Source: a virus
Taxonomy: Duplodnaviria > Heunggongvirae > Uroviricota > Caudoviricetes
Reading direction: 5' to 3' (one strand)
Length of the DNA stretch: 9,894 bases
IMG/VR virus record: IMGVR_UViG_2534681831_000019
Shown: positions 9,001 to 9,894 of the stretch, one piece after another
How positions within the stretch are numbered: the stretch's first letter is position 1
Layout: the number at the start of each line of letters is the position of its first letter
Position numbers: made by a program

Positions 9001-9894
9001 GGATAAGGCGCTGGCATGGGTGGAGAAAAACATCAAAGTGCCGCTGACCGAACCCCAGAAAGCGGGGATCGCGTCATTCTGTCCGTACAACATTGGTCCC
9101 GGTAAGTGTTTCCCGTCGACGTTTTACAGACGAATTAATGCAGGTGATCGAAAAGGTGCCTGCGAAGCGATTCGCTGGTGGATTAAGGACGGCGGCAGAG
9201 ACTGCCGTATTCGCTCAAACAACTGCTACGGTCAGGTCTCACGGCGTGACCAGGAGAGCGCGCTGGCGTGCTGGGGAATTGACAGATAAGCAGAATATTT
9301 TGCTGAAAATGCGGTTTGCTCACACGGGCGGATAACACGAAATCCTGCGAACTGGCAAAAACTAAGTGAATAAAAGTAAAACCCCGTTTGTTGGCCGCAA
9401 GCGGGGTTTTGTGTTTCCTGACTCCGGAAAAGTCAAAGGAGAAAGTGTGTTTGATTTTAGCAAACTGATTCGGGAGATTCGAATGATGGCTGTAAAATTA
9501 TCCACCTGGAAGTTCATCCTTATCTGGCTGGTGTTTGTGATTATGGCTTCCGGTTATTTCATTGGTCAGATACGCTGGTGGTGAAATGAACCGCGTACTG
9601 TGCGTGGTCATCATTGCCCTGCTGGTGGCCTGTGGTGCGCTTAGTCTGGGGCTGAATCATTACCGTGATAACGCCATAACCTACAAAGAGCAGCGCGATA
9701 AAAAAGTCAGTGAGCTGGAGCTGGCAAATGCAACCATTACTGATATGCAGCAGCGCCAGCGTGATGTTGCTGCACTTGATGCCAGATACTCGAGGGAATT
9801 AGCCGATGCGAGAGCTGAAAATGAAACTCTGCGCGCTGATGTTGCCGCTGGTCGTAAGCGCCTGCGGATCAACGCCAACTGTCCAGGCTCCTTG

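Follow-up and report, generated by a model that had tools for sequence, protein, structure and literature searches.

The late region of a Shiga toxin 1 (Stx1)-converting lambdoid phage, analysed here as a window of 9,894 nucleotides (IMG/VR virus record IMGVR_UViG_2534681831_000019), carries in the gap between the endolysin gene R and the spanin gene Rz what sequence comparison marks as a self-contained mobile cassette of ~215 bp (9365-9584). That this cassette holds a real gene, for a 45-aa membrane peptide, behind a conserved bidirectional hairpin and a structured leader is very probable. The first codons of the gene read, on the opposite strand, as a conserved extended -10 promoter element, and production of an antisense RNA from that strand is favoured, with some reserve; the combined explanation, a mobile cassette under antisense RNA control, is about evenly poised between right and wrong. 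The cassette is present in about one-sixth of complete Escherichia coli genomes as well as in Shiga toxin (Stx) and Salmonella phages, yet it carries no name, is often left out of annotations and has no entry in Pfam, NCBIfam, Rfam or PADLOC.

The elements of the cassette and its borders are the following (positions in the window).

9290-9377, plus strand: spacer of ~90 nt from the R stop codon to the hairpin
9365-9377, minus strand: U-rich tail of the hairpin on this strand, ACUUUUAUUCACU after GGGGUUUU
9378-9410, both strands: hairpin resembling a bidirectional intrinsic terminator, from folding and covariation
9411-9442, plus strand: sense leader, a U-rich tail GUGUUUCC running into a second hairpin
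9436-9441, plus strand: Shine-Dalgarno (SD) sequence AAGGAG, with a 5-nt spacer to the GTG at 9447
9447-9584, plus strand: peptide gene (phrog_6632), 45 aa, with a GTG start and the stop codon TGA at 9582-9584, followed by A at 9585 and the Rz ATG at 9586
9454-9462, minus strand: predicted extended -10 element TGCTAAAAT, the reverse complement of codons 3-6
9477-9482, minus strand: weak -35-like hexamer TCGAAT, 17 nt upstream of the -10 element
9370-9448, minus strand: predicted cis-antisense small RNA (sRNA) of ~79 nt, placed by the promoter and terminator positions
9472-9488, plus strand: possible internal start, GGGAG at 9472-9476, 9 nt before the ATG of codon 14 (9486-9488)
9576-9588, plus strand: junction TGG TGG TGA A ATG, end of the peptide gene and start of Rz

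A first-pass annotation of the window had described, in ~300 bp between R and Rz, a hairpin with a T-rich tail and a small open reading frame (ORF) with an AAGGAG ribosome-binding site, encoding a peptide with a C-terminal transmembrane segment and ending 1 nt before the Rz ATG. This description is borne out: the gap measures 296 bases, and the hairpin, the ribosome site, the 45 codons and the stop lie as listed above.

A conserved 45-aa peptide with a predicted membrane helix

The gene encodes MFDFSKLIREIRMMAVKLSTWKFILIWLVFVIMASGYFIGQIRWW, a member of phrog_6632, a PHROG family of 45 residues with neither an assigned function nor a lysis category. The most hydrophobic 19-residue window of the peptide spans residues 24-42 (Kyte-Doolittle 2.13), and AlphaFold2 models two helices, 4-17 and 20-44 (predicted local distance difference test, pLDDT, 85). 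The peptide is predicted to be a bitopic inner-membrane protein (N-in/C-out) with a cytoplasmic amphipathic helix (4-17), a membrane helix (~22-42) and an RWW tail.

Because pairwise ratios of nonsynonymous to synonymous substitution (dN/dS) range from 0.05 to 0.27 (with dS >1, that is, saturated) and both length and start are kept across genera, the ORF reads as a real gene under purifying selection. Same-length homologues were found in E. coli, E. albertii, E. fergusonii and Salmonella, and further homologues in Citrobacter, Yersinia, Brenneria, Symbiopectobacterium, Providencia, Dryocola and many IMG/VR prophages. Both the 45 codons and a GTG start are retained in at least eight Enterobacterales genera, with zero indels among the 45-codon copies (from Escherichia, Salmonella, Citrobacter, Yersinia, Brenneria, Symbiopectobacterium and IMG/VR phages), the Providencia copy being one codon shorter. 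The GTG start is constant throughout the enterobacterial set, and a distant group starts with TTG or ATG. In a profile search of 1.8 billion representatives, 40 cluster representatives were matched, almost all of them shorter than 90 aa; common to the matches are the N-terminal motif SKLIRELRxMxEKLPNWKF and a membrane helix after it. The cytoplasmic helix is the best-conserved part, and several distant relatives are without the RWW tail.

PGAP calls the ORF a hypothetical protein in some genomes, and many phage records, that of H-19B included, omit it. The peptide has no match in Pfam, NCBIfam or PADLOC, the last of which returned nothing for five neighbouring cassette peptides either. A literature search by peptide sequence retrieved no paper, and keyword searches (small ORFs between endolysin and spanin; morons) retrieved nothing specific.

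A hairpin with terminator features on both strands

The hairpin consists of a 5′ arm AAAACCCCGTTTG (9378-9390), a loop TTGGCCG (9391-9397) and a 3′ arm CAAGCGGGGTTTT (9398-9410), after which GTGTTTCC follows. It was missed by a simple terminator scan, in which the T-run was counted only beyond the longest stem, and this stem absorbs the TTTT. The free energy of the hairpin alone is −20.4 kcal/mol in the sense and −14.3 kcal/mol in the antisense orientation, and that of the 95-nt leader is −32 kcal/mol (z = −3.1; one of 200 shuffles was as stable). Among 21 close variants, 96% of stem cells are paired; compensatory changes were found at three pairs in the close relatives and at six in the wider set of 22 variants, and are of the types A-U to G-C, C-G to A-U and C-G to G-C (CUG/CAG to GUG/CAC).

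The plus-strand tail 3′ of the hairpin is UUUU(C/G)UGUUUC. The minus-strand tail, UUUYGCUUUU, is kept in 22 of 22 aligned variants, including distant ones with unrelated upstream genes, and is retained even where such a gene ends just 20-38 nt away; seen from the plus strand, it is the conserved 'ATAAAAGY' that forms the left edge of the mobile unit. A G+C-rich stem-loop directly followed by a U-tract is found on both strands, from which termination is predicted, and the hairpin is by its sequence terminator-like in both directions. The earlier description of a plus-strand terminator is right about the sense U-tail and too narrow, since the conserved U-tail on the minus strand makes the hairpin bidirectional. 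Moreover, the conserved A-rich run 5′ of the hairpin is left unexplained by a sense-only terminator and so points to use on the minus strand.

A putative minus-strand promoter within the peptide gene

On the minus strand, the codons GAT TTT AGC AAA read as TTTGCTAAAATC, an extended -10 element (TGnTAAAAT). Across nine lineages, nucleotide identity is 95% in codons 3-6 versus 53-61% in codons 22-45. The proportion of synonymous differences (pS) is 0.25 for codons 2-13 versus 0.76 for codons 14-45, that of nonsynonymous differences (pN) being similar for the two parts (0.14 and 0.22, respectively), and third codon positions are identical at 80 versus 46%. The synonymous sites that never vary are those that the motif needs, namely the T of GAT, the last T of TTT and the AGC of Ser5 (never TCN or AGT). 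The motif occurs as TGCTAAAAT, TGCTAATAT or TGCTAAGAT in every intact member, including relatives with ~40% protein identity. As the leader and the 3′ two-thirds of the gene have diverged on either side of this island, its conservation is unlikely to stem from recent recombination. Two TGNTAAAAT sites are present in the window against 0.52 expected by chance, so that the argument for a promoter comes from conservation and not from a single occurrence.

The -35-like hexamer is TCGAAT or TCGCAA; a weak -35 element is expected to be tolerable in a promoter with an extended -10. A -10-like hexamer is found at the same offset in two other cassettes that share the leader: TATACT in that of a 60-aa gene and TGCTAGACT in that of a 50-aa gene. 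Transcription would start ~7 nt 3′ of the -10 element (~9448), giving an RNA whose single-stranded 5′ end, ACACUUUCUCC, would be complementary to the start codon and the SD sequence; beyond it would come a stem-loop and an A-rich spacer and then the terminator hairpin with its U-tail. A second minus-strand site returned by a simple scan (CTGACC-18-CATAAT, 9569-9540) was dropped, as it is not conserved in Salmonella or other lineages.

On the plus strand, no promoter was found upstream of the peptide gene by promoter scan and inspection of ten orthologues. The -10 candidates CAGAAT, TAGAAT and GATAAT after the R stop codon, together with TTGACA in the last R codons, are wrongly spaced and none passes the scan; in the baseplate contexts described below, there is no room for such a promoter.

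The search of Rfam (E<=1) with the window and seven related loci returned nothing at 9290-9590. Several known sRNAs were considered as the cassette RNA and set aside: AgvB and AsxR lie downstream of stx, in antisense orientation; STnc100 and Esr41 have their Rfam matches elsewhere in the window and none at 9290-9590; and the Pas sRNAs are set apart by position only, PasA/C lying between esterase and holin and PasB in structural operons (bioRxiv 10.64898/2026.05.13.724894).

Leader structure and predicted coupling to Rz

In the sense leader, UUUCCU (9414-9419) pairs with AGGAGA (9437-9442) around an inner stem GACU/AGUC (9420-9423 with 9431-9434), and this second hairpin is modelled to sequester the SD site. 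The SD sequence, of which GGAG or GGGAG is retained in all relatives, falls inside the second hairpin in seven of nine folded sense leaders. An equivalent stem-loop of 4-7 bp is present in 20 of 22 antisense-strand folds, with a sequence that varies wholesale by lineage (at least five stems: UGACU/AGUCA, CCUUG/CAAGG, CGUUA/UAACG, CUCAUG/CAUGGG and CCCUU/AAGGG). The outer pairs of the second hairpin are 98% paired, yet their changes are one-sided only.

Within the gene, an SD-like GGGAG or GAGG lies 7-10 nt 5′ of ATG14 in nearly all lineages. The codon for Glu10 is GAG in every sequence that has Glu there and never GAA (locus L021 has Gly, GGG), and Met14 is near-invariant, being absent from P0047 and P0056. 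An internal start at Met14, which would yield a 32-aa isoform outside the cover of the antisense RNA, is a speculative reading of these sites.

Downstream, the position of the stop codon 1 nt before the Rz ATG implies, to judge from the gene layout, translational coupling of the peptide and Rz. The Trp-Trp-stop codons (TGGTGGTGA) double as an SD-like GGUGG for the downstream spanin in several unrelated peptides (in the window, L004, L008, L106 and L107), and this role may lie behind the RWW/KWW endings of different cassettes.

A mobile unit at phage gene junctions

Among 5426 complete E. coli genomes, 871 contain a place covering at least 80% of 9290-9590 of the window and 1719 contain some part of this interval. 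The matching phage records number 194, most of them Stx phages, plus Salmonella phage SPN3UB; carriers include H-19B, TL-2011c, CP-1639 and many Stx1a, Stx2a and Stx2c phages. In lysis-cassette contexts, the unit lies between the endolysin and the inner-membrane spanin (i-spanin), whatever their families:

This window: signal-anchor-release (SAR)-type lysozyme, unit, Rz
P22-like Salmonella prophage: 162-aa PF00959 lysozyme, unit, Rz
E. fergusonii: GH19 endolysin, unit, DUF2514 spanin
Citrobacter: phrog_873 endolysin, unit, Rz

Its neighbours thereby comprise four endolysin types, three holin families and two spanin families. Furthermore, hairpin, leader and ORF are found between gpV-like (237 aa) and gpW-like (115 aa) baseplate genes in E. 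coli, Yersinia similis and numerous IMG/VR contigs, with a truncated or fused copy at the same junction in Dryocola, and in Brenneria and Symbiopectobacterium the unit follows a 965-aa LPD38 'polyvalent' protein, with no gene downstream. In these baseplate and LPD38 contexts, the hairpin lies 20-38 nt past the upstream stop codon. Empty junctions exist as well: R and Rz of related pairs (~77% identity) overlap without an insert in K-12 Qin (rrrQ/rzpQ), BL21, locus L108 and others.

The frame of the peptide gene is retained in all relatives, and the R-Rz slot is a hot spot of inserts. In close relatives, the inserts are (i) ~297 bp, the phrog_6632 cassette; (ii) ~335 bp, a remnant plus a 37-aa peptide ending in IRWW; (iii) ~490 bp, with 60-aa and 43-aa peptides; (iv) ~640 bp, with four small peptides in tandem; and (v) ~990 bp, with ant and a 44-48-aa peptide, the case of Sakai Sp5, Sp10, Sp12 and Sp15. 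All slot peptides are of the single-helix membrane type and belong to PHROGs without known function, and several end in (I/V)(R/K)WW-stop-N-ATG. From these comparisons, the R-Rz slot and one baseplate junction emerge as hot spots for small membrane-peptide cassettes.

The alternative or tandem slot genes encode 60 aa (phrog_1115/4493), 43-44 aa (phrog_4906), 50 aa (phrog_12997) and 28 aa and 37 aa, the last two ending in IRWW, and lie at L013 2156-2482, L106 657-1141, L107 721-834, L008 3755-3907 and L104 2650-2784; truncated remnants occur too. The VT2-Sakai phage record leaves the 44-aa gene upstream of Rz without annotation. In SPN3UB (L105 1392-1502), an unannotated 36-codon ORF for a hydrophobic peptide, MSKRDVSALCFLMAAAVAISGNDGWGWLIFAGIIIL, begins in the last lysozyme codons, upstream of the cassette.

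These contexts bear on two suggestions made at first pass, that the peptide is an extra lysis-cassette component or a moron. The former is contradicted by the same unit between baseplate genes and after the LPD38 protein and by the absence of any lysis family among its Pfam and PHROG assignments. The latter is half right: the unit is extra DNA between genes that are adjacent in relatives, but no sense promoter of its own was found, and its terminator lies upstream of the gene, which is followed by no more than the ATG of the next one.

Proposed mechanism

Under the combined explanation, the cassette would hold two convergent genes, that of the peptide on the plus strand and that of the antisense RNA on the minus strand. 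Q-modified polymerase ignores terminators in lambdoid phages; as no promoter of its own is apparent, the peptide would depend entirely on Q-antiterminated late transcription past the hairpin. The hairpin would end upstream transcripts that lack Q modification and the antisense RNA too, and peptide synthesis would be damped by three features: the upstream terminator, the leader hairpin that pairs a U-tract with the SD sequence, and the GTG start. The extended -10 element in codons 3-6 would fire the ~79-nt RNA, running from the start codon through the ribosome site to the hairpin. In the lysogen, the ribosome site would be covered by this RNA and the peptide kept silent. Once the prophage is induced, Q-modified polymerase coming from PR′ would read through and either outrun the antisense RNA or occlude the facing promoter, whereupon the peptide would be produced alongside the lysis proteins, with the inner membrane as its site of action.

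A type I toxin-like function of the peptide is conceivable, though on present grounds it falls somewhat short of probable. Since the conserved part is the cytoplasmic helix and the phage partners vary, the peptide more likely acts on a host or membrane target than on one particular holin, endolysin or spanin. Still more tentatively, the cassette may represent an undescribed family resembling type I toxin–antitoxin (TA) systems, with a promoterless, late-only peptide, a convergent sRNA whose promoter lies within the codons, a shared terminator and possibly isoforms of 45 and 32 aa, of which only the 45-aa form would be under antisense control, and with a function in lysis timing or competitor exclusion. 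Within this reading, leader and antisense RNA would act as a 'socket' into which phrog_6632, 1115, 12997 and IRWW peptides are swapped at R-Rz and at baseplate V-W, across Enterobacterales.

Several observations weigh against the proposal. The distant relative L113 has no clean -10 element and one variant of the 50-aa cassette (L011) has lost it; the -35 hexamer matches the consensus at three of six positions, leaving the promoter to lean on the extended -10 alone. Conservation of nucleotides at the 5′ end can also stem from constraints on translation initiation, and part of the constraint there lies on the sense strand. Counts of G-U versus A-C in the hairpin stem favour neither strand, and the E. 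coli-type hairpin is the more stable on the sense strand, by the energies given above. No known toxin, antitoxin RNA or defence protein resembling the cassette was found in Pfam, NCBIfam, PADLOC or Rfam. Finally, the peaks from Hfq cross-linking and analysis of cDNA (Hfq-CRAC) in O157 Sakai (PMC4104026 Table S2) include none in an R-Rz gap; however, the four Sakai gaps inspected, those of Sp5, Sp10, Sp12 and Sp15, hold ant plus a 48-aa gene in place of the phrog_6632 cassette, which makes the list uninformative on it, and in Sp6, ant likewise follows R. The peaks EcOnc10, EcOnc11 and EcOnc33, mapped on the Sakai genome, fall downstream of Rz or at the esterase.

Alternative explanations

The alternative that survives best, possible if on the unlikely side, is a plain late accessory gene (a 'promoterless moron') read by Q-dependent readthrough, with a sense-only terminator that keeps stray prophage transcription out of Rz and the packaging genes. 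The peptide would then be an ordinary small membrane protein, for example, for superinfection exclusion or modulation of a host transporter, and the conservation of codons 2-13 would result from weak GTG initiation combined with an internal start at Met14. On this account, the sense hairpin with UUUUGUGUUU is a textbook terminator, in the more stable orientation in the window. The SD-like sequence before ATG14 and the GAG-only Glu10 fall in the non-constrained spacer of the putative antisense promoter and thus attest to some constraint on the sense strand. The cassette also sits at positions typical of morons, including tail gene clusters, where small exclusion genes such as HK97 gp15 and cor are known, and its high turnover and the tandem arrays of unrelated small peptides fit cargo of an arms race. 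However, constraints on initiation seldom fix exact bases, whereas the invariant synonymous sites coincide one-for-one with the minus-strand -10 element; moreover, the A-rich run 5′ of the hairpin would have no role beside a sense-only terminator, and a defence role finds no PADLOC or Pfam match.

An improbable alternative is that the hairpin forms the 3′ end of an sRNA from the 3′ untranslated region (UTR) of R (9290-9410, plus strand), the small ORF being incidental. The spacer 9290-9377 (including GGCGGATAACACGAAATCC) is kept in E. coli lambdoid prophages and even, with different upstream genes, in Salmonella phage SPN3UB (L105 1500-1590) and in the P22-like prophage (L004 3850-3930); in VT2-Sakai, homology to the spacer ends exactly at the position where the hairpin would start. 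Such an RNA would end in a hairpin and U-tail like those of Hfq-dependent sRNAs, and late regions of this kind are rich in sRNAs, with STnc100 in the window and AgvB, AsxR and Pas nearby in relatives (PMC4104026; bioRxiv 10.64898/2026.05.13.724894). Yet the short distance from the upstream stop codon to the hairpin in the baseplate and LPD38 contexts leaves no room for an sRNA body, neither a sense promoter nor an Rfam match was found, and the ORF is clearly selected as a protein. In lambdoid contexts, an sRNA of this kind can be compatible with antisense control of the cassette.

Slightly less probable still is that the peptide serves as a dedicated fifth lysis protein in partnership with the spanin, for instance, as a regulator or chaperone of the Rz anchor, translationally coupled to it for stoichiometry. 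In its favour, the stop codon in lysis cassettes always lies 1 nt before the i-spanin ATG, for Rz (PF03245) and DUF2514 alike, other slot peptides finish in the same WW-stop-N-ATG manner, and the topology (N-in, a single membrane helix) resembles that of the Rz anchor. But the same gene and leader occur at baseplate V-W (E. coli, Yersinia, Dryocola and IMG/VR) and after LPD38, R/Rz cassettes without the peptide are common, the cytoplasmic helix is conserved best while the RWW tail is lost in several distant relatives, and the holin, endolysin and spanin partners are not conserved. A chance ORF beside a chance palindrome in a non-coding spacer, which the short length, the non-ATG start and the missing annotation in many records might suggest, is refuted by the dN/dS values, the invariance of length and start across genera, the compensatory stem changes and the presence in 871 of 5426 E. 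coli genomes.

Relation to known systems

Antisense control as proposed here has its closest counterpart in type I TA systems such as hok/sok and symE/SymR, which share with the cassette a small product whose ribosome site and start codon lie under a short cis-antisense RNA, predicted in our case. The antisense promoter of symE/symR is located within the first codons of its target, and this is the geometry predicted for the cassette; in geometry, symE/SymR and P22 sar/ant come closest to it. Hok, like the cassette peptide, is a hydrophobic single-helix inner-membrane peptide of <60 aa, and the 45-aa peptide has the size and hydrophobicity of type I toxins (<~60 aa, with a membrane helix). In contrast, neither sequence nor profile comparison links the cassette to Hok, Ldr, TisB, Ibs, ShoB, Zor or DinQ, or to the RNAs Sok, SymR, Rdl, Sib and IstR. 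It also differs in that its peptide gene is promoterless and embedded in a phage late operon, that a single hairpin upstream of the peptide gene would terminate both strands, and that it is a mobile unit interchangeable with other small-peptide genes; its toxicity and its RNA are predicted only. In the Stx2 prophage Sp5, deletion of the type I TA system hokW-sokW delayed growth arrest by ~40 min after induction and halved progeny release (PMC8621323); a pair of this kind in an Stx prophage can thus help lysis and the release of progeny, and it is the nearest precedent with a demonstrated effect.

Short antisense RNAs that pair with a ribosome site in or near a late operon, as predicted here, are also found in P22 sar/ant (immI), lambda OOP and anti-Q. 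In sar-type logic, the antisense promoter faces a stronger phage promoter and convergent transcription interferes. Unlike sar/ant, the target in the cassette is a 45-aa membrane peptide and not an antirepressor, and no repressor proteins are associated; Rfam sar has no match at the cassette, its only, weak match lying elsewhere, in L116. The RNA sar is mentioned in PMC2629481.

With morons (lambda bor/lom, HK97 gp15 and cor), in the definition quoted in PMC2629481 and PMC3594210, the cassette shares its nature as extra DNA between adjacent genes, the location in late operons, small envelope proteins and high turnover. Classical morons have their own sense promoter and a downstream terminator, whereas the cassette has no detectable sense promoter and an upstream terminator, so that expression of the peptide from the prophage is not expected. 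Holin/antiholin genes with dual starts (lambda S105/S107 and S21 68/71) likewise encode small membrane proteins with a structured initiation region and, in the cassette possibly, two in-frame starts (GTG1 and ATG14). The cassette peptide differs from them in its single helix, in having no holin Pfam family, in starts that are 13 codons apart and in being tied to no holin type and occurring outside lysis cassettes as well.

Neither the peptide, the RNA nor the cassette was found described in the curated libraries and literature searched. The cassette falls in no named family and is best filed as akin to antisense-controlled small membrane peptides and to moron-like cargo. Small membrane-peptide cassettes at phage junctions are an almost unstudied class of genes. 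If the antisense RNA is real, the cassette would be a new small-toxin architecture, embedded in a late operon and combining a bidirectional terminator with a promoter in the coding sequence. It would also be a clear case of a coding sequence constrained by a promoter on the opposite strand, and would offer a handle on lysis timing and toxin release in phages of Shiga toxin-producing E. coli (STEC).

Other features of the window

The gene order around the cassette is as follows, all on the scale of the window.

Upstream of 3183: NinG, then NinH
3183-3665: Q antiterminator (by Pfam)
4163-5397: stx1A/B
Between STnc100 and the holin: nanS-p-type esterase
8536-8751: holin, P21-type (by Pfam)
8756-9289: lysozyme R (by Pfam), SAR-type
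From 9586: Rz (by Pfam)

A full-length STnc100 sRNA lies at 5476-5685 (plus strand), directly 3′ of stx1B (Rfam RF02076, 176.7 bits), and the Salmonella P22-like prophage L004 has one full and two partial copies of it, interleaved with tRNAs. Between esterase and holin, a sub-threshold match to an Esr41-like hairpin RNA was found at 7857-7933 (minus strand; 28.5 bits, E=0.04); the anti-sRNAs AsxR/AgvB, and PasA/C, are reported from the same position in related prophages (PMC4104026; bioRxiv 10.64898/2026.05.13.724894).

The strong Hfq-CRAC peaks EcOnc10 and EcOnc11 lie just 3′ of Rz and antisense to the late operon (L109 ~6320-6370 and L111 ~3740-3790; Sp10 and Sp12). EcOnc12 (Sp9) nearly equals them in peak score and shares their offset of ~5 kb from its anti-sRNA (PMC4104026), and, counting this peak, the position of an sRNA beside the lysis cassette would be conserved.

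A 13-bp terminator-like hairpin at 8468-8497 (plus strand), followed by TTTATTGTTG, is located just 5′ of the holin start and after a DUF826 ORF (8249-8458). The sialate esterase of nanS-p type (SASA plus DUF6645) is represented by two overlapping ORFs in different frames (5908-6357 and 6281-7855, plus strand), while in relatives it is a single gene of ~620-650 aa; the split is either a frameshift (pseudogene) or a sequencing error. Upstream of ninG, a 283-aa AT-rich ORF without a Pfam match (39-890, plus strand) lies beside a truncated phage-integrase fragment (1564-2148, minus strand), and the whole looks like a cargo island inserted in the nin region.

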